A stretch of DNA of 64,000 nucleotides from Escherichia coli (GCF_002854065.1 NZ_CP024153.1), one strand, 5' to 3'. Positions 9,111 to 64,000 are shown, counted from the stretch's first letter. Translations and numbers: made by a program. Notes: generated by a model from the letters alone, not told the origin.

Positions 9111-9240
9111 AATAAGTATTGGTTTGGTAAAGGGCTTAATTTTAACGGCTAACAATTAATGAGGCTCCGGGTTCGCCCAACGTTTGACATGAGGGGCGGC
9201 CAAGGGCGCCAGCCCTTGGACGTCCCCCTCGATGGAAGGG

Positions 9241-9840
9241 TTAGGCATCACTGCGTGTTCGCTCGAATGCCTGGCGTGTTTGAACCATGTACACGGCTGG
9301 ACCATATGGGGTGGTTACGGTACCTTGCCTCTCAAACCCCGCTTTCTCGTAGCATCGGATCGCTCGCAAGTTGCTCGGCGACGGGTCCGTTTGGATCTTG
9401 GTGACCTCGGGATCATTGAACAGCAACTCAACCAGAGCTCGAACCAGCTTGGTTCCCAAGCCTTTGCCCAGTTGTGATGCATTCGCCAGTAACTGGTCTA
9501 TTCCGCGTACTCCTGGATCGGTTTCTTCTTCCCACCGTCCGTCCCCGCTTCCAAGAGCAACGTACGACTGGGCATACCCAATCGGCTCTCCATTCAGCAT
9601 TGCAATGTATGGAGTGACGGACTCTTGCGCTAAAACGCTTGGCAAGTACTGTTCCTGTACGTCAGCAAGTGTCGGGCGTGCTTCTTCTCCGCCCCACCAC
9701 TCGACGATATGAGATCGATTTAGCCACTCATAGAGCATCGCAAGGTCATGCTCAGTCATGAGGCGCAGTGTGACGGAATCGTTGCTGTTGGTCACGATGC
9801 TGTACTTTGTGATGCCTAACTTTGTTTTTGCGTTGCTCAT
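9241..9840 (-). CDS. aac(6')-Ib-cr: AAC(6')-Ib-cr aminoglycoside/fluoroquinolone acetyltransferase (Trp-to-Arg and Asp-to-Tyr variant); alternative GTG start at 9879
   Basis: ...[28 protein letters not shown]... and ...[15 protein letters not shown]... carry both -cr-defining substitutions. Confidence 0.9.
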
Positions 9841-19919: not shown

Positions 19920-20601
19920 TCAGACGGGATTTTGCTTATCAATTATTGAGAACAGAAATTTTCCTGAATCATCAATACTATACTTAGCAAGTAAAGGTGT
20001 TTTCTCATTTATCTGCTTGAGAGCAGGATCAAGGAAAGATCGTTTCAACTCTGCCAAGTTCTTCTGTTGGGATTCCGGCAAAAGGAAACGGTCATTTAAC
20101 CAAGCATGAGTAGTAACCCATAAGCCTGAAGATTTGAATTGAGCAAGACTTTCATAAAGGCGGATCGTCCGTGGATTTCGAAGACTGCCACAATCGCGGA
20201 GCGAGTAGGTGGTGAACTGGTTCGTCAGGCCGTAAATGTACCGCAGGAGTTTATGGTTAAATTCGATTTCCCAGATACCACGAGCTGATCGGCTGCCAGC
20301 CTCTGTTAGCCAGGGGCGCGCGACGCAGTCAAAACTCCCTTCTTTCGGGTAAAAGATTACCGCAGAACGGCTTAACTCAAACACGCCTTCTTTAACATCC
20401 TTGATAGCCTGGTTACGGCTTACCTGAAAAATTTGCTGATAGTCAGCCACCTTTACTTTGAAAGTAGAGTCACCGAGTACAGCCATCTCATCATCATCTT
20501 CGCTTACTGAAGCTGTGAAATACGTCTGCATAAGACATAACCAGAGAACGCGCTTTGCTTTTAGCGAGAGGTAGTAAGCAGCTTCGGTAAGCTCGTTAGA
20601 C
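19920..20601 (-). pseudogene. Rep_3-family (RepE-like) replication initiator, N-terminally truncated by IS26
   Basis: ...NELTEAAYYLSLKAKRVLWL...IRLYESLAQF... parallels recalled F RepE ([20 protein letters not shown]...MRLYESLCQY); first 17 residues of the ORF come from the IS26 end. Confidence 0.75.
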
Positions 20602-21421
20602 GGCACTGTTGCAAAGTTAGCGATGAGGCAGCCTTTTGTCTTATTCAAAGGCCTTACATTTCAAAAACTCTGCTTACCAGGCGCATTTCGCCCAGGGGAT
20701 CACCATAATAAAATGCTGAGGCCTGGCCTTTGCGTAGTGCACGCATCACCTCAATACCTTTGATGGTGGCGTAAGCCGTCTTCATGGATTTAAATCCCAG
20801 CGTGGCGTTGATTATCCGTTTCAGTTTGCCATGATCGCATTCAATCACGTTGTTCCGGTACTTAATCTGTCGGTGTTCAACGTCAGACGGGCACCGGCCT
20901 TCGCGTTTGAGCAGAGCAAGCGCGCGACCATAGGCGGGCGCTTTATCCGTGTTGATGAATCGTGGGATCTGCCACTTCTTCACGTTGTTGAGGATTTTAC
21001 CCAGAAACCGGTATGCAGCTTTGCTGTTACGACGGGAGGAGAGATAAAAATCGACAGTGCGGCCCCGGCTGTCGACGGCCCGGTACAGATACGCCCAGCG
21101 GCCATTGACCTTCACGTAGGTTTCATCCATGTGCCACGGGCAAAGATCGGAAGGGTTACGCCAGTACCAGCGCAGCCGTTTTTCCATTTCAGGCGCATAA
21201 CGCTGAACCCAGCGGTAAATCGTGGAGTGATCGACATTCACTCCGCGTTCAGCCAGCATCTCCTGCAGCTCACGGTAACTGATGCCGTATTTGCAGTACC
21301 AGCGTACGGCCCACAGAATGATGTCACGCTGAAAATGCCGGCCTTTGAATGGGTTCATGTGCAGCTCCATCAGCAAAAGGGGATGATAAGTTTATCACCA
21401 CCGACTATTTGCAACAGTGCC
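20602..21421 (-). mobile_element. IS26 copy 5 (variant: Asn184 plus one synonymous change)
   Basis: 820 bp; ...KLKRIINATLGFKS... Confidence 0.95.
20654..21376 (-). CDS. tnpA: IS26 transposase Tnp26 (Asn184 form)
   Basis: 240-aa ORF; GGC to AAC at codon 184 relative to copies 1-3. Confidence 0.95.
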   Translation of the reverse strand: MLMELHMNPFKGRHFQRDIILWAVRWYCKYGISYRELQEMLAERGVNVDHSTIYRWVQRYAPEMEKRLRWYWRNPSDLCPWHMDETYVKVNGRWAYLYRAVDSRGRTVDFYLSSRRNSKAAYRFLGKILNNVKKWQIPRFINTDKAPAYGRALALLKREGRCPSDVEHRQIKYRNNVIECDHGKLKRIINATLGFKSMKTAYATIKGIEVMRALRKGQASAFYYGDPLGEMRLVSRVFEM

Positions 21422-22474: not shown

Positions 22475-22726
22475 ATGAGCTATCAAATTCTGACAACCAC
22501 AGCGGCCAGTATTACTGACCTGAAAAAAAATCCTATGGGAACCGTAGCTGAAGGTGAAGGGGACGCTGTTGCGATCCTGAACCGAAACGAACCGGCGTTC
22601 TATTGCGTTCCACCAAAACTTTACGCCTACTATCGGGAACTCGCTGAAGATGCTGAGTTAAACGCTGTTGCTGATGAGCGCATGAAAAACCCGGAAATTG
22701 TGAAGGTTAACCTGGATGACCTATGA
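22475..22726 (+). CDS. Phd/YefM/StbD-type antitoxin
   Basis: 83-aa ORF overlapping the downstream RelE-like gene by 11 bp; typical antitoxin size and arrangement. Confidence 0.7.
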   Translation: MSYQILTTTAASITDLKKNPMGTVAEGEGDAVAILNRNEPAFYCVPPKLYAYYRELAEDAELNAVADERMKNPEIVKVNLDDL

Positions 22727-22997
22727 ACTGGCTTTTGACCGCAGAGCACTGAAGGAATGGCAGAAACTCGGCCACACCATCCGTGAACAATTCAAAAAGA
22801 AGCTGGCAGAACGGCTGGAAAATCCACGCGTACCCGCAGCCCGGTTACATGGTCATGCTGATCGCTATAAAATCAAACTTCGTGCATCTGGCTACAGACT
22901 TGTATATCAAGTCATTGATGAGAAAGTCGTTTTACTCGTTATTGCTGTTGGAAGAAGGGAAAGCAGCGAAGTTTATCAGATTGCAGATATGCGCTGA
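22716..22997 (+). CDS. RelE/StbE/ParE-family toxin
   Basis: 93 aa MTYELAFDRRALKEWQKLGHTIREQFKKKLAERLENPRVPAARLHGHADRYKIKLRASGYRLVYQVIDEKVVLLVIAVGRRE, characteristic RelE/StbE pattern. Confidence 0.8.
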   Translation: MTYELAFDRRALKEWQKLGHTIREQFKKKLAERLENPRVPAARLHGHADRYKIKLRASGYRLVYQVIDEKVVLLVIAVGRRESSEVYQIADMR

Positions 22998-48718: not shown

Positions 48719-49633
48719 TTAATTACCTTCCATCTTGTAAAAAAGAATCAAATCCTCTAATAATATCTCGATTCCCGCTTTTTTTAATACATCTTTCCGC
48801 TCGGCATATATTTTCCTCAACATATCTTCAAACCCCTTGCCAAGATGAATTTGTTTATGGCAGTTGCAACATAGTGATATGATATTCTCTTCCACATCCA
48901 GTGAATTCTCAAAATAGTCTTGCTTTGACATCGGGACAATGTGATGAGGTTCTGTGTAATTTAGAGGAGAGTTTCGCCTTCTGAACGTTGGATGGTCGCA
49001 ATTAATTTCACATTTATAATCAGCTTTGTTAAGCGCATTTTTTGAAACAGATTTACTTCTTGGGTATGAGAGTCCATTTTTGACTTCTATTGCAGCTTTC
49101 TTAGGTTTCGCTTTTTCGCTATACTCAAATGTCTGAGTAACGTCAAAGTGATTACTTTCTTCTAGAGCAGTGATCAAATCATTATCTGAGTAAAAATCAA
49201 TGCTTGAGCTTTCGTTCGTACTAAAAAAATCTAGTTCTTTTATTGCCTGAACAAGTTCTTCACGGATAGTCCATAAATTTCGCTTTGGGTTTCCTTTAAT
49301 TTCTCTACTTTTCATGACTGTAATGAATTTTGTCCCGGAAGCAATCTTTCCGACTCCTTTAACCTCGAATCGGCCAAGCTGCTTCTGAACTCTTCCACCC
49401 AACCCATTGATTACACCATTAGCACTCATACTGTGCAGGTCGTACTTCTTGCCGATATCGAAACATGTACAGGAATGGTCTGGCTCAATGAACCATTTTT
49501 TTAACGCTGCAATACTTTTGTCATCAAAAACTTTTTTATCCCTTAATAAAATCTTCCATTCTTCAACGCTAATATCTATATCACAGACGTATTCACCATC
49601 AATTACTTCACATATTTTTTCAATCATGTCCAT
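48719..49633 (-). CDS. HNH (His-Me finger) endonuclease-domain protein with uncharacterised ~200-aa N-terminal domain
   Basis: C-terminal YKCEINCDHP...EPHHIVPMS...SLCCNCHKQIHLG HNH/zinc-finger motifs; low-GC gene flanked by ~400-600 bp AT-rich non-coding DNA. Confidence 0.75.
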   Translation of the reverse strand: MDMIEKICEVIDGEYVCDIDISVEEWKILLRDKKVFDDKSIAALKKWFIEPDHSCTCFDIGKKYDLHSMSANGVINGLGGRVQKQLGRFEVKGVGKIASGTKFITVMKSREIKGNPKRNLWTIREELVQAIKELDFFSTNESSSIDFYSDNDLITALEESNHFDVTQTFEYSEKAKPKKAAIEVKNGLSYPRSKSVSKNALNKADYKCEINCDHPTFRRRNSPLNYTEPHHIVPMSKQDYFENSLDVEENIISLCCNCHKQIHLGKGFEDMLRKIYAERKDVLKKAGIEILLEDLILFYKMEGN

Positions 49634-50243
49634 AACTCTCTTGTAACACAGGCTTTGTAATAATGTAAAATCCGTTACACGGCGTTGTATGTAATGTCAT
49701 TGTCTCTTGGACTCCTACAGTCCAAAACAACTTTGTGTTTTGTTGTCCAAAAACTTTTTGTTGCAGTGAGTTCTCACTGAGATAAATCTCGCCTTGAGCG
49801 TATCACATCAGCAGACTTCCTCTCAACCTTATGGACTTAACCCGGTCATTCTTCACGACAAAGAAAGTACGGCATTTTACATGACGAAGAGACGGTCTCA
49901 GTTTCACATGACCGGATAACGTTTTTAATGTACTTCATTATTACGGCACGGGTGTTCAAAGAGTATTTTTAAATATTAATCATTTTGTTTAACGGGTGGA
50001 TACCTACAAATTTTAACATTTACTAATCAAGATAGCAGTTATACGTACTGTCCCGGCAAAAATCCTGAGGTTTACAGATTCCCTCACCGTAACAGACCCG
50101 GTCATTCCCCCTGGTCCTCCGGAGAGTCTAGTACGAGTGATAAACGTGAATTCCTGTACCTGAAGTTCAGCCGCTGGCAGATAAGTCGTGAACTATAATT
50201 ACATTCAGTCAGATCCAAACACCTTTTCATCTGCATATATACT

Positions 50244-51239
50244 TTGTACATACCAGGAGATTACATGCAGGCACCCGGTATACCGGAGAATGAAGAACAG
50301 AGGCTGAAGTCCCTGTATATTACCGGCCTTCTTGATACCCGTGACGATGAGCGTTTTGAACGCCTGACGCGGCTGGCCCGTAAAGCCTTTCAGGTCCCGG
50401 TGGCCCTGATAAGCCTGCTGGATCGCGAGCGCCAGTGGCTCCTCGCCTGCCAGGGCGTCGGCGTGCGCGAAACCCCGCGTAACATCTCGTTCTGCGGGCA
50501 TGCCATTCTGCAGGAGGGGCCCTTCATTGTTCACGACGCAGCTGCTGATGAGCGGTTCCGTGACAATCCCCTGGTCACCGGTGAGCCCCACATCCGGTTC
50601 TACGCCGGCCAGCCGGTGAGCCTGCCCGACGGCACGGTGGCCGGCACGCTGTGCCTGATCCACACCGTTCCCCGCGCCTTCACGGATGATGACATTGCGT
50701 CCCTCCGGGATCTGGCCTGTATCGTGGAAGACGAATTCGAGGCCATCAGCATGGCCATGACGGACAGCCTGACGGGCATTCCCAACCGGCGCGGGTTTTA
50801 CCGCGCCGGCGAAAAACTCTTCCGCGCGATGAACCGGCAGGATGCGTCGTTCAGCCTCATCTATTTCGATCTGGACAGGTTCAAACCGGTGAACGATCTC
50901 TGGGGGCACGCAGAGGGAGACGAGGTGCTGAAGGTTTTTGCCGGCTTTTTACATCAGCACCTCGAACCGGGCGAAATAGCAGGCCGCCTCGGCGGGGATG
51001 AGTTTGCCGCCCTGATCCGGCGAAACGGGAACACGAGTTCTTTTCTGCACGCGCTGAGTGCCAGTTTGGATCATTACAATGACACCTCGGGCAAGCCCTA
51101 CAACATCAATTATTCCTTTGGCGAACTGATCAATAACGCAGACCAGTACGCGACGCTGGCGGAAATGATCGGCAAATGTGACGAAGTGATGTACCTGAAG
51201 AAAAAACGAAAGACCCTGTCGCGGAAAGCAGAACCGTGA
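50244..51239 (+). CDS. GAF-domain diguanylate cyclase (GGDEF)
   Basis: N-terminal GAF-like region; C-terminal ...RLGGDEFAAL... GGDEF active-site motif. Confidence 0.85.
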   Translation: MYIPGDYMQAPGIPENEEQRLKSLYITGLLDTRDDERFERLTRLARKAFQVPVALISLLDRERQWLLACQGVGVRETPRNISFCGHAILQEGPFIVHDAAADERFRDNPLVTGEPHIRFYAGQPVSLPDGTVAGTLCLIHTVPRAFTDDDIASLRDLACIVEDEFEAISMAMTDSLTGIPNRRGFYRAGEKLFRAMNRQDASFSLIYFDLDRFKPVNDLWGHAEGDEVLKVFAGFLHQHLEPGEIAGRLGGDEFAALIRRNGNTSSFLHALSASLDHYNDTSGKPYNINYSFGELINNADQYATLAEMIGKCDEVMYLKKKRKTLSRKAEP

Positions 51240-51808
51240 CGTTCTCCTTCCCGGCTGATCCCCTGCCCCGGGGTTCAGCCGGACGGCAGGAACAATATAT
51301 TTAACCTCATGGCGCATAAAGTCATTTATATTTGCTCATGGCGCAATAATCCTCTCATCGCAACAATTACTCGTTTTTTGTGTCCATGCTGCAAAAATTC
51401 CTCTCTTCCTCTCCCGAGATCCGAAAAAAGGTAGTCCCGGATCTCTGCGAACCCCACCGGCGCGCAGCGGCCCGACAACACAAGATGTAGCGGTGTTTCC
51501 AGCTGATAGTGACGCCATATGTTGTGTCCCTCTCCTGCCCCGTGACCCGGCGCGCAGCATCAGAAAACAGTGCTTCGCTTACTTCCTGACCGTGATAAAC
51601 TTCCGGAAACTTCGCTAAATGTGAAAAGTCGGATCTGCCGGAAACGGTCATTCGGTAATTTAACAGCGTTGCTATATGGCTGCTTATTATCAGTCAAAAA
51701 AATAATTACAGTATGGGAAATTCATCCAGGTGACAGATGCAGGATTGTGCTCAGCTAATTATACCTTGCGTCATAATTACACTTAGTGACTATTTATTAG
51801 GAGGCTAA

Positions 51809-52105
51809 ATGCACGCATCAATGGTTCATGTCTGGGAGTATCTGACACGTTGTGGTCATAAATTTCTATGGCTAAAAATTAACCCTCTACCTCCAGGATA
51901 TACCGGTTCGGTATACAGAGCGCAGTTTGAAATTTACAGCGCGTCGGGCCGTATTCTGGTCACGCTTGATGTGCACAGACAGCAATGGGTGTGTTCAGCA
52001 AACAATCCTCGCCGTGAACCTGCTGATAAAAACGGGGTCATGCTTGATAGCGGTATACCTCTGGATAGAAACCTCGCATCACATTATGCAAAACAGGGGT
52101 ACTGA
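51809..52105 (+). CDS. Hypothetical small protein (98 aa)
   Basis: Strong RBS (AGGAGG) 7 bp upstream of ATG; no recognisable motif. Confidence 0.5.
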   Translation: MHASMVHVWEYLTRCGHKFLWLKINPLPPGYTGSVYRAQFEIYSASGRILVTLDVHRQQWVCSANNPRREPADKNGVMLDSGIPLDRNLASHYAKQGY

Positions 52106-52169
52106 ATGAATCTAACCCTGGTACAAGCACTGGCAGATGCCTGGCGGGATTTCTCAATAAGGATCAAAC

Positions 52170-52841
52170 ATGGCTGACTGGTTTATTGCGACTGAGGGCG
52201 TGAAGGTGGTGAAGGACAGTGCCAGCCTGTGGCCGCAGATCGTTACGGCTATTTCCTCTGCCGGCGCAGCCCTGGTGGGTGTTGCTCTCACACACCGTTT
52301 TACCCGCAGGCGTGAAGAAGCTACTGCTGCACGTAAACGTTACGATGAATTGTACTTTATATCTACCGAGCTAGTTTTTCTGCTGGAGCGTTTTGCACAA
52401 CGCTGTGTTTATTCTGCTAATGAATCAGGGGAATATGACCAAGATGGACGTATTAGGATTGAGTATTCTTTACCTGAAATCAATTTCGAGTCCATTACTG
52501 GGGACTGGCGTTCTCTGCCACCAGGATTGATGTACAGACTTGCTGAATTGCCAGTCATCTGCAGGGAAGCCGCGAGTTCTATAAGTGCGGCGTTCAATGA
52601 AGATACTCCCTTCGATGGATCGTATGGAATTTTCGAACTTAACAGGCAGTCTGCAAGACTCGGATTAAAAGCAATACGTTTATCCCGTTGGCTACGTCAG
52701 CTATGCGATATGCCTGGGGACAGGTTGTCTGACGACCGTTGGTCGGCATGGAGTGTTTTGTATCGGAAGCGCTGGGAGCATATTAGGAATAATAACAATG
52801 TTCACCGCCGATATAAACGGTTGCCTGATGTTACTGAGTAG
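52170..52841 (+). CDS. Hypothetical membrane-anchored protein (223 aa, one N-terminal TM helix)
   Basis: RBS (AGGA) upstream; hydrophobic segment LWPQIVTAISSAGAALVGVAL; ends 19 bp before the recombinase gene. Confidence 0.55.
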   Translation: MADWFIATEGVKVVKDSASLWPQIVTAISSAGAALVGVALTHRFTRRREEATAARKRYDELYFISTELVFLLERFAQRCVYSANESGEYDQDGRIRIEYSLPEINFESITGDWRSLPPGLMYRLAELPVICREAASSISAAFNEDTPFDGSYGIFELNRQSARLGLKAIRLSRWLRQLCDMPGDRLSDDRWSAWSVLYRKRWEHIRNNNNVHRRYKRLPDVTE

Positions 52842-56062: not shown

Positions 56063-57150
56063 GGGCGGATTTCCACACAGCACCGGCGCCCGGCAAGGTG
56101 GGCCGATTTCCACACAGCACCGGTGCGCGGCAAGGTGGGCCGATTTCCACACAGCACCGGCGCCCGGCAAGGTGGGCTGATTCCCACACGGCACCGGCGC
56201 CCGGCAAGGTGGGCGGATTTCCACACAGCACCGGCGCGCGGCAAGGTGGGCTGATTCCCACACGGCACCGGCGCCCGGTAAGGTGGGCGGATTTCCACAC
56301 GGCACCGGCGCCCGGTAAGGTGGGCGGATTTCCACACAGCACCGGCGCCCGGCAAGGTGGGCTGATTCCCACACGGCACCGGCGTCCGGTAAGGTGGGCG
56401 GATTTCCACACAGCACCGGCGCGCGGCAAGGTGGGCCGATTTCCACACGGCACCGGCGCCCGGCAAGGTGGGCGGATTTCCACACGGCACCGGCGCCCGG
56501 TAAGGTGGGCTGATTCCCACACGGCACCGGCGCCCGGCAAGGTGGGCTGATTCCCACACGGCACCGGCGCCCGGTAAGGTGGGCGGATTTCCACACAGCA
56601 CCGGCGCGCGGCAAGGTGGGCTGATTCCCACACGGCACCGGCGTCCGGTAAGGTGGGCGGATTTCCACACAGCACCGGCGCGCGGCAAGGTGGGCTGATT
56701 CCCACACGGCACCGGCGCCCGGTAAGGTGGGCGGATTTCCACACGGCACCGGCGCCCGGCAAGGTGGGCTGATTCCCACACGGCACCGGCGCCCGGCAAG
56801 GTGGGCTGATTCCCACACGGCACCGGCGCCCGGTAAGGTGGGCTGATTCCCACACAGCACCGGCGCCCGGCAAGGTGGGCTGATTCCCACACGGCACCGG
56901 CGCCCGGCAAAGTGGGCGGATTTCCACACAGCACCGGCGCCCGGTAAGGTGGGCGGATTTCCACACAGCACCGGCGCCCGGCAAGGTGGGCTGATTCCCA
57001 CACGGCACCGGCGCCCGGTAAGGTGGGCGGATTTCCACACAGCACCGGCGCGCGGCAAGGTGGGCCGATTTCCACACAGCACCGGCGCCCGGCAAGGTGG
57101 GCGGATTTCCACACAGCACCGGCGCGCGGCAAGGTGGGCCGATTCCCATA
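56063..57150. repeat. Tandem array of ~29 copies of a 37-bp GC-rich repeat (consensus GGGCNGATTYCCACACRGCACCGGYGCSCGGYAAGGT)
   Basis: Period and copy variants read directly; begins exactly at the IS30 end. Confidence 0.9.
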
Positions 57151-58502: not shown

Positions 58503-59366
<864 letters not shown>

Positions 59367-59536
59367 CCACTTCAAACATGCTTCGTTCAGATCCCAACAG
59401 AGTTTTCACCATCGCCTGTAACAGCCGTCCTGCTGCGTGATTACTCCGCTCAACGGGTTGCTGGCGACAAGTCAATACCTGTTCGTGACAGGTATTGATT
59501 GAACCGTTGTCCCTAACTAATAATGTGCCGACGATG

Positions 59537-59750
59537 CAGGTGGGACCGTGGTCCCAGGGAGATAACCTGACCGGCGATACAGGTGGGACCGTGGTCCCAG
59601 GGAGATAACCTGACCGGCGATACAGGTGGGACCGTGGTCCCAGGGAGATAACCTGACCGGCGATACAGGTGGGACCGTGGTCCCAGGGAGATAACCTGAG
59701 CGGCGATACAGATGGGACCGTGGTCCCAGAGAGAATATTCAGGCCAGTTA
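59537..59750. repeat. sopC: sopC-like centromere: about 5 tandem 43-bp repeats each containing the inverted repeat TGGGACCGTGGTCCCA
   Basis: Read directly; immediately downstream of sopB as in F plasmid. Confidence 0.85.
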
Positions 59751-59817
59751 TGTTTTCTGGCCTGTGAGAAAGGAAATGAAGTAAAGGGAGATCACCGTAG
59801 ACTAAAGCGTGTCCGCA

Positions 59818-60789
59818 TCAGACTCCTGGTTTCTCAAGCTCCTTAAGAATGGCTTCTATTTTCTCTATACACTCCGCAGGAATGCGGGACCTATCCAGGT
59901 TAAGCACCATTTTATCGCCCTTATACAATGCTGTTGCCCCTGGAGCAAACTGATGACGTGAGCTCAGATTAACTCTTGATGCGGGGGATTGTTTCAGTAC
60001 GGATGTTAAAAGACTAATGACCTCTTCAGCTTCAAAGATTAGTCCCGCTTTCTTCTGATCGTGGAGAGTCTCAGCCTGCTGCTTCAGTAATTCTTCTTTA
60101 TCTGCAAAAGCCTTCTGAAGGGCTTCACCTGACCGGGCAGACAGTTCTCCAGGATGTGCAAACAGGGCAACAACGGATTTAGGCAATTTGGCCGTATTGA
60201 TACAGCGGGTAATGATCTTACGAGAGATGTTTTCCGCATCGGCAAGCGCAGAAATATTTCCTGCAAACTCATTCTGCAGCCGGCTTGTATAACGCAGGCC
60301 ACGTTCATAAGCACTCGTCGGCCGATAATCGTTACCCAGTCGGGACAATGCAGCCATCTGCTCATCGTCCAGTTCACCAACCAGAACGCGATAATCACTT
60401 TCCGTCAGGATTGCGGCTTTACGGCGACGGCTGCCGTCGGCAATTTCTATGACATCAGAAACCCGGCGGCCGAAAGCTGGAGTCTGCTGACCGGTCAGTA
60501 AAAATGAAGGAATGAGATCATCCAGAGCATCTTCGGTAAGTAGTTCCTGATCGCGCTCATTGCCTGACCATACGCGTGAAGCGCTCTCAACAGAGTCTCC
60601 CCGGAGCACCTCAAGGGTAAATTTTACTTCCCGTCCACATACCGGAAGAGAGATTGCATTACCGCGGGCCATAGCACCCACGCGCGCAATTAATGAATCC
60701 ACCATCGGCGCGGCCGGCGCCGGTGATGAAGTATCTTCAGTCGATTGAGTATGTGTGGTATGTCTTGGAATGACAGGAGCACGCTTCAT
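59818..60789 (-). CDS. sopB: SopB/ParB centromere-binding partition protein
   Basis: 323-aa ORF immediately downstream of sopA and upstream of sopC repeats. Confidence 0.88.
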
Positions 60790-61964
60790 TATCTAATCTC
60801 CCAGCGTGGTTTAATCAGACGATCAAAAATCTCATTGCAAACAGGCTCCCAGATAGAGAGGGCATTACGCCAGGCACCGGTTGAAGAACGTTGATCAATA
60901 GCCTGTTCAAAAACGGTTCTCATACGGATCTGACCTTTACCGACTTCATCCGTTTCGCGCACAACATTTTTAAGGACCATGCTTCCCCAGGCATCCCGAA
61001 TTTGTTCTTCCATCCACGGGGACTGTGAGCCATTATTATTACTGTATTTGGTAAGCAGAATACGGACATCTGGCTCGAAGCCTTTAAGATCCACGTTCTT
61101 AAGCAGGTCACGAAGCATATCGAAAAACTGCAGTGCGGAGGTGTAGTCGAACAGCTCTGCCGGAGTAGGGACAATCAGAACATCAGCAGCGCATACAACA
61201 TTTATCGTACCGATACCAAGGTTAGGTGCACTGTCGATAACTATCACGTCATAATCATGAGCGACAGTTTCAATGGCCAGACGGAGCATCAGGTGCGGGT
61301 CAGCAGGTAATTTGCCTTCGTCAAATTTCCCCATCAGCTCGGTTTCAATGCGGTGCAGTGCCAGACAGGACGGGATGATATCAAGGCCAGGCCAGCAGGT
61401 GGGCTTTATAGCGTAGCTGGCGTCATCCTTTTCCCCAAGATAAAAGGGTAGGAGAGTGTCCTCAGCATGAATATGAAGATCGGGCACCCATCCGTGATAC
61501 ATAGAAGCAGTTCCCTGTGGGTCATTGCCTTCAACAAGCAGAACACGGAGTCCTTTCAGAGCAAGATCCTGAGCCAGGTGAACGGATACTGAGGTTTTGT
61601 AAACACCACCTTTGTGAGCTGCAACGCCAATCACCGGCGGAAACGCATCTTCAGCACGGCGCAGTCGTGTACCAAATACATCCCGCATGTGATTGATTTG
61701 TTCGATGGTATAACCAACGCGTTGCTCAACTCTCCCACGGGTTTCCATATCAGGGTGCGGCAGCCGGCCAGCTTTCTCGGCATCCCTGATAGCCTGAGAT
61801 GACACGCCAACTAAATCTGCCGCTTCACCAATCCTCCAGCGCCGGGTTATTTTCCGGGCTTCCGGACTGTCATCATTAAACTGTGCAATGGCGATTGCTT
61901 TCGTCATTTCATGACCAGCACTTATGCACTGGTTGAGTGTATCCATGAGTCCCATACTGAACAT
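60789..61964 (-). CDS. sopA: SopA/ParA type Ia partition ATPase (F-plasmid-like)
   Basis: Near-identical to recalled F SopA: ...[55 protein letters not shown]...; Walker A KGGVYKTS. Confidence 0.9.
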
Positions 61965-62149
61965 CCTTTAACCATCACTTTGCATTATTTTATTAAATCT
62001 TGGAATTTATTGCAAAGCAACAATAAAATCGCAAAGCACACGAAAAAGTGCAAAGTGAACCACATTGGCTAATGAAAGAACGCAGGGGATTACAAAAGAG
62101 TACATACTGCAGTCAATATTAATCACTGCCGCTCGCCGCAGTAAGCGAT

Positions 62150-62680
62150 CTCACAAAGTGAGAAAGCGGCGAGGAAGCGGAAAATCACAGAACTCACAGA
62201 TTGCACGTACGTCGGGTTGCTAAAGATGACTCGGGATCAGCCAGTTATAATGAAATTGACTGCGGTATGTAATATATTGACTATGGTATGATGCTTACCG
62301 CATCTGTAGGAAAGACGACTCAGCATACCGCAGTCAATGTTTCATTGTTGTACCTGTAGATCTCAATCTTCCAGAGCGTATTCAGGAAAATCAGGCCAGG
62401 GTTCTGGATATCTGGTGTGGCGCTTCCGGCCTTGTATCTGGGTTATTCATGGTCTCGATCCAATAATTGATCCCAAGGAGATCATAGTGAGATCCAAAAG
62501 AGATCCCCGGATCGCTCCAGCATGCGCTGTAACTGGCTTTAACGTCTGTCTGGATCGACTGCGGAATGTAAAATGTTGACTGTTATATGCATAATCTAAT
62601 ACTGTGATATGCAACGGTATTTACTGAGGTATGTATATCTGTTGACTGCGATACGTATTACTACATCCTTTTGTGGATAA
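62150..62680. repeat. Iteron cluster upstream of repB (multiple TTGACTG(C/T)GGTATG-like repeats in both orientations)
   Basis: ATTGACTGCGGTATGT, ATTGACTATGGTATGA, CATACCGCAGTCAAT, TGTTGACTGTTATATG, TGTTGACTGCGATACG read directly. Confidence 0.7.
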
Positions 62681-62683
62681 CCG

Positions 62684-63706
62684 TTGAGGATCAAGATGAC
62701 GAGCGAAAATAATAGCTTACTTCTGAACCTTCAGGAAGTTGATAAGACAACCGGTGAAGTTGTTAAGCTGGATGTCAACAGCACCAGTACCGTGCAGCCA
62801 GTAGCGCTCATGAGACTCGGTCTCTTCGTCCCAACTCTGAAATCAACAGGGAAGAGCAAGGCGAACCGGAAAAACGTTACAGACGCGACTGAGGAGCTTG
62901 TACAGCTGTCCATTGCCAAAAGCGAAGGATACACTGACGTTAAGATCACCGGTTCGCGTCTTGATATGGACACGGATTTTAAAGTCTGGCTGGGGATAAT
63001 TCGCTCCATGTCGGAGTATGGGGTAAAAAGTGACACCCTGGAACTGTCGTTCGTCGAATTCGTTAAGATGTGCGGATTTGACTCCCGTCGTTCAAACAAA
63101 AAAATGCGCGATCGCATCAGTAATTCCCTGTTTAAACTCGCCTCGGTTACGCTGAAGTTCCAGAGCGAGACCAAAGGATGGACCACCCATCTGGTGCAGT
63201 CAGCCTATTATGACATCAACGAGGATATCGTTGAGATCAAGGCTGAACCTAAGCTGTTTGAGCTTTACCACATGGACAGAAGGGTACTTCTGCGGCTGAA
63301 AGCCATTGACGCCCTGCAGCGCAAGGAATCAGCCCAGGCGCTTTATACCTACATCGAAAGTCTTCCCCAGAATCCTGCACCTATTTCCATGAAACGGATG
63401 CGTGACCGGCTGAATCTCACCTCAAATGTCTATACGCAGAACCACACGGTGCGTAAGGCGATGGAGCAGCTGCGGGATATTGGTTATCTGGATTACACTG
63501 AGTTTAAACGTGGCCGAGCCACCTATTTCAGCGTGCATTATCGCAACCCCAAACTCATCAGTGGTCCTGTGAAGGTTCCGCGCAAAGAGGAAGAAGAGAA
63601 GGCGCCAGAGCAAAATTATGACGAAGTCATTAAGGCGCTGAAGGCTGCTGGCATCGATCCCCTTAAACTGGCCGAAGCTCTCTCAGCGATGAAGCCAGAA
63701 AATTGA
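62684..63706 (+). CDS. repB: Rep_3-family replication initiator (RepB/RepA of IncFIB/IncR-like replicon); start may be internal (MTSENN...)
   Basis: 340 aa; ...[16 protein letters not shown]... and ...[25 protein letters not shown]... resemble recalled IncR/IncFIB RepB; flanked by iterons. Confidence 0.8.
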
Positions 63707-63830
63707 CTGTCATATGTGATTTCAGGCCGTGATACGCAGATATTGACTACGGTATGCGGGTTTAACGGCGATATTCCCAGGTCTGTGCACTGCTCCACAC
63801 GTGTTAACATGCCACAGTCAATTTTTCAGT
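63707..63830. repeat. Iteron cluster downstream of repB
   Basis: AATTGACTGTCATATG, ATATTGACTACGGTATGC, CCACAGTCAAT read directly. Confidence 0.65.
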
Positions 63831-64000
63831 AAAGCTCTATACCCCTTACGAAAATCTCAATCGGATGGGCTTTGTTGAATAAATCGAACTTTTGCTGAGT
63901 TGAAGGATCAGATCACGTATCTTCCCGACAACGCAGACCGTTCCGTGGCAAAGCAAAAGTTCAAAATCACCAACTGGCCCACCTACAATAAAGCCCCCAT

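Follow-up and report, generated by a model that had tools for sequence, protein, structure and literature searches.

The right-hand end of a 64-kb stretch of Escherichia coli DNA (NZ_CP024153.1, GCF_002854065.1; hereafter the window) carries a partition operon of the F Sop type, consisting of sopA, sopB and a sopC centromere with few repeats, next to a repB gene whose product differs from RepE, the initiator encoded beside sop in F. This locus raises the question of whether partition system and replicon were joined from different sources, and whether the short centromere is a damaged one. A preliminary description had proposed that the two are of different ancestry. Our analysis showed that the locus is, with high confidence, the canonical and well-known IncFIB(K) maintenance backbone, lying within a mosaic multi-resistance plasmid.

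Arrangement of the sop operon and repB in related plasmids

The distribution of the arrangement was examined in PLSDB. A query with the 4.6-kb locus matched at least 5,000 plasmids, mostly from Klebsiella and Escherichia, and among the best 5,000 matches, which were analysed for coverage, 971 covered at least 80% of the query in one piece. With a junction query of 1.5 kb spanning sopA and repB, at least 1,122 records covered at least 80% in one piece and about 1,900 records matched at an identity of at least 90%; many other matches were split at the ATG of repB only because the deposited record begins there. F-type E. coli plasmids matched the junction query only over sopA, at about 85%. The divergent order sopB-sopA / repB was present in every sampled IncFIB(K)-type locus spanning both sides (S. 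Typhi pK91, K. pneumoniae pKP111, pCAV1392-131, E. coli pABWA45_1, K. oxytoca pCAV1335-115 and the IncHI1B/IncFIB plasmid pKPN945A), and in the window, too, sopAB-sopC was divergent from repB and immediately upstream of it. The IncFIB(K) context has been described as sopB-sopA-repB-int in Klebsiella multi-replicon plasmids (PMC8579121). The reading of the preliminary description, if taken to mean something unusual, is overturned by the junction records and the published context, both of which show that this repB replicon normally carries sopABC, the very finding that the description had named as its refutation. Its statement on ancestry held insofar as an F-family Sop system does lie beside a non-RepE initiator, but the pairing is the standard IncFIB(K) backbone and not a noteworthy one.

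The initiator itself was of the IncFIB(K) type. RepB of the window was 100% identical in amino acid sequence to that of K. pneumoniae pKP111, whose sole typed replicon is IncFIB, and 99% identical to that of K. pneumoniae pCAV1392-131, which is typed IncFIB/IncFII; in pKP111 and in a record of a plasmid identical to the window at this locus it is annotated as WP_000200070.1. The identity to RepB of F RepFIB was 58%. No significant similarity was detected between RepB and F RepE, and no NCBIfam model matched RepB. A tblastn search with an IncFIA(HI1)-type RepE query found no RepE beside sop in the window, only a distant Rep_3 open reading frame (ORF) at about 20 kb. With its Rep_3 domains and its 11 iterons of the type ATTGACTGYGGTATG, the neighbouring gene thus agrees with the preliminary description of an IncFIB-type RepB other than RepE. 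The replicon types of the relatives are MOB-suite calls, and the label IncFIB(K) is based on the relatives' 'IncFIB' calls, on Klebsiella plasmid identity and on the published names of near-identical hybrid plasmids (PMC8557919). Close relatives were typed IncFIA/IncFIB/IncX1 or IncFIA/IncFIB/IncN, and IncR was not among the types of the sampled relatives.

The operon contained both a SopA-type ATPase and a SopB-type ParB, as expected of an F-type Sop system (type Ia ParABS). SopA matched the NCBIfam equivalog NF010259 over the whole profile length with 865.8 bits (cutoff 725), its Walker A motif KGGVYKTS was intact, and a weak match to a MerR-type helix-turn-helix (HTH) was seen at residues 44-74. 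SopB matched NCBIfam NF010252 with 628.6 bits (cutoff 274) and Pfam PF18090 SopB_HTH with E=3e-39; its HTH residues 181-210, R219 and the GSRRRKAA box were unchanged with respect to F. As in F, sopA and sopB overlapped by one base. The near-identity of SopA to F SopA noted in the preliminary description was confirmed, with 379 of 388 residues identical (97.7%), and SopB shared 289 of 322 residues (89.5%) with its F counterpart.

Divergence from F and age of the linkage

An F-derived sopABC recently joined to an unrelated repB replicon would make the locus an unusual chimera. Such an origin would fit the near-identity of SopA, the position of the F sop operon beside RepE instead of RepB, and the loss of DNA homology to F about 100-190 bp upstream of sopA, but the divergence of the DNA contradicts it. 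In the comparison with the F reference (NC_002483, sopABC at positions 49789-52474), homology extended from about 62056 of the window through sopA, sopB and sopC to about 59441, with an extra short block at 62096-62141. Nucleotide identity to F was only 86.7% in sopA and 81.6% in sopB; third codon positions were identical at 65% and 59%, respectively, so that 35-41% of them differed. The synonymously changed codons numbered 136 in sopA and 121 in sopB, and the replacements 9 and 34. Synonymous divergence from F was saturating, and a recent transfer of sop from F was ruled out by the divergence at the codon positions. A recent chimera is also hard to reconcile with the spread of the junction, which recurs in well over a thousand plasmids and across divergent IncFIB(K)-type lineages, and with the site resembling an IncFIB(K)-type iteron that F has at the homologous place upstream of its sopA. 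Taken with these observations, a recent joining is very improbable. The sop operon of the window is a sister of the F sop operon that separated from it long ago and has been under strong purifying selection, and it is this selection, not recent exchange, that accounts for the high amino acid identity of SopA. That identity should not be read as recent exchange, since the underlying DNA is deeply diverged.

The iteron-like site of F, TGACTGAGGTATG, lies 158 bp upstream of sopA and about 150 bp beyond the last incC iteron, in the region NC_002483 about 49605-49660 (L004 1606-1660) that is homologous to window 62096-62141. Of its 15 positions, 13 agree with the IncFIB(K) iteron consensus, and it corresponds in place and orientation to the outermost iteron of IncFIB(K) plasmids (window 62103-62117), the two lying within a homologous block of about 50-270 bp. 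This block could be aligned across F and several lineages of the IncFIB(K) type. F is without a cognate RepB(K), and the iterons of its RepFIB are of another type, CTGACTACAGYTTAT. The site in F may be a relic of an older linkage between sop and an FIB(K)-type replicon, and its homologous position argues that the sop-IncFIB(K) linkage is old. It is conceivable, though we hold it only tentatively and think it somewhat doubtful, that Sop with an IncFIB(K)-like iteron replicon was the older pairing and that the adjacency of RepE and sop in F arose secondarily. This is a hint only, and its direction is opposite to that implied by the preliminary description.

Within the IncFIB(K) family, sopA was mosaic. 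Between the window and pCAV1392-131 (L010 6606-7772), sopA was 90.8% identical in nucleotides and 73.5% identical at third positions, while sopB and repB were about 98.5% identical in nucleotides and the SopA proteins were more than 99% identical. A mosaic sopA together with a conserved SopA points to recombination within the family and to very strong purifying selection.

Features of the locus

The features of the locus and their immediate neighbours are listed in Table 1. The start of sopA follows the RefSeq annotation of identical plasmids, and a longer sopA ORF reaches 61964.

Table 1. Positions of the features of the sop-repB locus, counted from the first nucleotide of the window
Feature	Position	Strand	Remark
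IS3-family transposase fragment (rve domain)	58527..59369	+	context only
Native distal flank of sopC	59378..59498	-	aligns with the post-array flank of relatives
sopC centromere	59499..59734	-	five perfect 16-bp SopB sites with 43-bp spacing, plus a degenerate terminal repeat
Inverted repeat CAGGCCAG / CTGGCCTG	59740..59764	-	between the sopB stop and sopC; read from the sequence
sopB, ParB-type centromere-binding protein, 323 amino acids	59818..60789	-
sopA, Walker-type partition ATPase, 388 amino acids	60789..61955	-	start as in the RefSeq annotation
sop promoter/operator	61956..62060	-	predicted
Distal repB iteron cluster, four copies	62103..62338	mixed	62103 (-), 62255 (+), 62276 (+), 62324 (-)
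Proximal repB iteron cluster, four copies	62554..62680	+	62554, 62575, 62619, 62641, then DnaA box
repB, IncFIB(K)-type Rep_3 initiator, 336 amino acids	62696..63706	+	Pfam Rep3_N and Rep3_C
Downstream iteron array, three copies	63702..63822		63702, 63742, 63808
IS903B left end GGCTTTGTTGAATAAATCG	63868..64000	+	context only; just beyond the last iteron

The predicted promoter region contained three CTTTGC hexamers on the sop strand (GCAAAG on the plus strand at 62012, 62031 and 62050) and one inverted GCAAAG (plus strand 61978-61983). In the alignment all four hexamers were conserved column for column with F, and their 19-bp periodicity was also found by Tandem Repeats Finder. We infer that the CTTTGC hexamers form the SopA operator, by analogy with the operator role in F as given in PMC8465637.

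The sopC centromere

The centromere is defined by tandem repeats of 43-45 bp downstream of sopB, each containing TGGGACC-PuPy-GGTCCCA (PMC3177203), and such an array was present in the window. Tandem Repeats Finder reported a period of 43 bp with 4.8 copies and 96% matches at 59528-59734. Motif search and reading gave five exact copies of TGGGACCGTGGTCCCA, at 59541, 59584, 59627, 59670 and 59713, in agreement with the estimate of about five 43-bp repeats in the preliminary description. This motif is the reverse complement of the F SopB site TGGGACCACGGTCCCA, which reads on the sop strand, and the 16-bp cores were identical to the F consensus site (consensus from PMC3177203). Chance levels for motifs were taken as the expected count per 64-kb window and from 100 shuffles. 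The five sites were all the matches in the window, against 0.69 expected, and none of the 100 shuffles reached five. A degenerate sixth copy, TTGAACCGTTGTCCCT, at 59499-59514 matched at 12 of the 16 core positions. Counted from sopB, the run of perfect sites began 90 bp past its stop codon. The arms of the inverted repeat between sopB and sopC were also found at the equivalent position in F; this element may act as a terminator or have a structural role.

The repeat number varied widely among related plasmids. Cores counted directly by motif in 16 IncFIB(K)-type loci, the window included, numbered 3, 4, 5, 5, 5, 9, 10, 11, 13, 13, 16, 16, 16, 17, 18 and 21, and in F-type plasmids 4, 8 and 10. 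The F record contained 10 cores (at most 2 mismatches) and degenerate terminal repeats, in line with the '12 repeats, 10 bound' given in the literature (PMC3177203). Plasmids pK91 with 3 repeats and pKP111 with 13 repeats were 99.1-99.9% identical to the window in the nucleotide sequences of sopA, sopB and repB. Among the best 30 PLSDB matches, 11 were full-length, with five repeats as confirmed in one (L001), and 19 were shorter by 43 bp, which implies four repeats as confirmed in one (L002). Short arrays also occurred in unrelated lineages (5 repeats in K. variicola, 4 in pTA105). In the study of Pillet et al. (2011), sopC homologues held 3-17 repeats, with 17 in pKPN3, the repeat number was not considered an important feature, and one repeat was enough to stabilise mini-F (PMC3177203). 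The short sopC is ordinary copy-number variation of a kind already known. Because one repeat suffices in mini-F, the five-repeat centromere of the window should still work.

A different explanation would be that sopC has been cut by a neighbouring insertion sequence (IS) and is decaying, leaving partition defective. The neighbourhood gives some reason to consider it: on its distal side the array is directly followed by an IS3-family fragment and an IS1; the IS3-family fragment ends within about 10 bp of position 59378, where the native flank starts, and about 170 bp away from the nearest perfect SopB site (59541); and there are fewer repeats than in F and in most Klebsiella relatives. However, the stretch from the IS end to the nearest perfect site still contains about 120 bp of native distal flank and the degenerate repeat. 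When 200 bp beyond the array were aligned in 14 loci, the distal flank aligned in all 10 of the other IncFIB(K)-type plasmids compared, with repeat numbers of 3-21, and F was partly homologous too; truncation of sopC by an IS was excluded by this retained flank. An inverted repeat, CAATACCTGT/ACAGGTATTG, was located inside the distal flank at about 59473-59497. Each of the five cores fits the consensus perfectly, both sop genes are intact and encode the same proteins as in pKP111 with its 13 repeats, and a single repeat is sufficient in mini-F (PMC3177203). A decaying centromere is therefore hardly credible. Since native sequence bounds the array on both sides, the loss is an internal contraction and not the result of IS cutting, units having been lost by recombination or slippage between identical repeats.

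The repeat number changes fast, by at least one unit between otherwise identical plasmids. It could serve as a fine-scale epidemiological marker, and it is also a possible source of assembly errors.

The period of the array varied as well. In K. variicola AJ055 plasmid 2 (L014 4516-5180) the sopC period was 44-46 bp instead of 43 bp, and mixed periods of 42 and 43 bp were observed in K. quasipneumoniae, K. oxytoca and pKPN945A (L006, L020 and L022). Variation among 43-, 44- and 45-bp periods was reported by Pillet et al. (PMC3177203), and the 42- and 46-bp periods extend this range.

The repB replicon and its iterons

A search for ATTGACTGYGGTATG with at most 3 mismatches found 11 iterons in the window, all within 62103-63822, against 2.4 expected per window; none of the 100 shuffles reached 11. 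A perfect DnaA box, TTATCCACA, was located on the minus strand at 62672-62680, just upstream of repB. The locus contained the parts of a Rep_3 iteron replicon, with a WH1/WH2 initiator, eight upstream and three downstream iterons, and the DnaA box. In each of the four relatives tabulated, the two proximal iteron clusters were placed as in the window with respect to repB. The outer three iterons of the distal cluster were shifted by 10 bp in pCAV1392-131 (L010) and pABWA45_1 (L016) and were in the same place in L005 and L007. The downstream array lacked 124 bp through an iteron-to-iteron deletion and kept 3 iterons, compared with 6 in Klebsiella relatives, according to the iteron tables and BLAST against L007 (counterpart at 9175-9405). 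Identical plasmids annotate an IS903B transposase at the 63868 junction.

With sopC at 5 repeats against 13-21 and the downstream iterons at 3 against 6, the contraction of both arrays could have been adaptive in multi-replicon cointegrates, where it would lower the titration of SopB and RepB and the incompatibility, or raise the copy number. In its favour, repeat-to-repeat deletion has shortened both arrays in this lineage, which is made up of multi-replicon hybrids, and of the best 30 matches 11 were full-length (five repeats) and 19 were shorter by 43 bp (four implied repeats). The correlation is not consistent, however, as pK91 has 3 sopC repeats yet largely intact downstream iterons, and arrays as short are found in the unrelated K. 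variicola (5) and pTA105 (4). Neutral slippage or unequal recombination accounts for what is seen, and the published work holds the repeat number unimportant (PMC3177203). We consider adaptive contraction unlikely, and neutral copy-number variation remains the preferred explanation of the short sopC.

Comparison with known systems

The best matches were hybrid resistance plasmids of E. coli typed IncFIA/IncFIB/IncX1, among them the tet(X4) plasmid pNT1W25-tetX4. They were 100% identical to the window over 59400-64000, a segment that takes in the five repeats of sopC, the contracted downstream iterons and the junction with IS903B. Outside about 34.8-64 kb the window was not collinear with pNT1W25-tetX4, the first 25 kb of the window being a different resistance mosaic. 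Many sibling hybrid plasmids differed in having 4 repeats, not 5. The IncFIA(HI1)/IncFIB(K)/IncX1 hybrid type has already been described (PMC8557919).

The Klebsiella IncFIB(K) backbones (the pKPN3-like pCAV1392-131, pKP111, pK91 and the IncHI1B/IncFIB plasmid pKPN945A) were like the window in the order sopC-sopB-sopA / repB and in the distal flank, and the proteins of pKP111 were identical to those of the window. Unlike them, the window had IS903B in place of the downstream integrase side and the 124-bp iteron deletion. The sopA allele of pCAV1392-131 differed from that of the window at 26% of third positions. Much of the load of resistance and virulence genes in Klebsiella resides on IncFIB(K) plasmids, which also occur in E. 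coli hybrid plasmids. In pKPN3 itself (NC_009649), the first 6 kb, which is the part that was examined, contains an IncFII replicon.

F sopABC resembled the window operon in gene order, in the overlap of sopA and sopB, in the lengths of 388 and 323 amino acids, in the 43-bp period with an identical TGGGACCACGGTCCCA site, in the CTTTGC hexamers, in the stem-loop between sopB and sopC, and in a partly homologous distal flank. It differed in that the DNA was 13-18% diverged, the 27-bp spacers between the cores were different, and F had 10 repeats plus 2 degenerate ones compared with 5 perfect repeats in the window. In addition, the neighbour in F was a co-oriented repE-incC, whereas that in the window was a divergent repB.

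Among the replicons of F, RepFIB of F/P307 shares with the window replicon a Rep_3 initiator, at 58% identity, and iterons that flank the gene on either side. It also has a tyrosine recombinase as neighbour, and intact relatives of the window replicon have an adjacent integrase. Unlike the window replicon, RepFIB of F had CTGACTACAGYTTAT-type iterons and no adjoining sop operon. RepFIA (RepE) of F has 19-bp TGTGACAAATTGCCCT iterons beside sop, and the incB/incC iterons were absent at the window locus.

Proposed function of the locus

Gene identities, motifs, synteny, repeat numbers and flanks were computed here, and binding, spreading, autoregulation and handcuffing are taken from F and RepFIB biology. 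As in other Rep_3 replicons, RepB would be expected to bind the ATTGACTGYGGTATG iterons. On the upstream iterons beside the DnaA box it would open the origin, initiate replication and repress its own gene, and the outlying iterons would limit the copy number by handcuffing. The sop operon would act as a type Ia ParABS system of the F Sop family, transcribed divergently from repB. By analogy with F, SopB dimers would bind the 16-bp inverted repeat of each 43-bp unit via the HTH and then spread, forming the partition complex, and the Walker ATPase SopA would position plasmids on the nucleoid and repress the operon at the CTTTGC operator. Because F has the same SopB site and the same HTH core, the locus is predicted to be incompatible, through partition, with F-type sop plasmids; if true, this could influence which plasmids coexist.

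Some points weigh against reading the locus as the maintenance backbone of this plasmid. The plasmid probably has other replicons, so that repB as the functional replicon is an assumption; both the types of the relatives, which are multi-replicon, and a second Rep_3 ORF in the window suggest this. This ORF (19920-20648, minus strand, 242 amino acids, Rep3_N E=5e-28) abuts IS26 at 20654-21376. It was 31% identical to IncFIA(HI1)-type RepE and 24% identical to the IncX1-region RepB of pNT1W25-tetX4, and matches spanning at least 80% of it occur in at least 900 PLSDB plasmids. Moreover, with 3 instead of 6 downstream iterons and an adjacent IS903B, copy control could be altered, and the mechanistic steps above are drawn from homology. 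The assignment to the IncFIB(K) backbone nevertheless remains the one we hold with high confidence.

Other features of the window

The first 25 kb of the window (1-25000) consisted of mosaic resistance regions with a class 1 integron, IS26 and Tn3-type elements, which matched many different plasmids. A gene for a ParE-type toxin was present at 22716-22997. The segment 34838-56066 was 97-99% identical to a part of pNT1W25-tetX4 containing the sil silver/copper operon.

A tandem array rich in G and C occupied 56063-57148, with 29.4 copies of a 37-bp unit and 91% matches. All three minus-strand frames were open through the array (ORFs of 363-391 amino acids). The array or parts of it were present, unannotated, in up to about 4,000 PLSDB plasmids from many Enterobacterales, a count that includes matches to the IS30 flank only.

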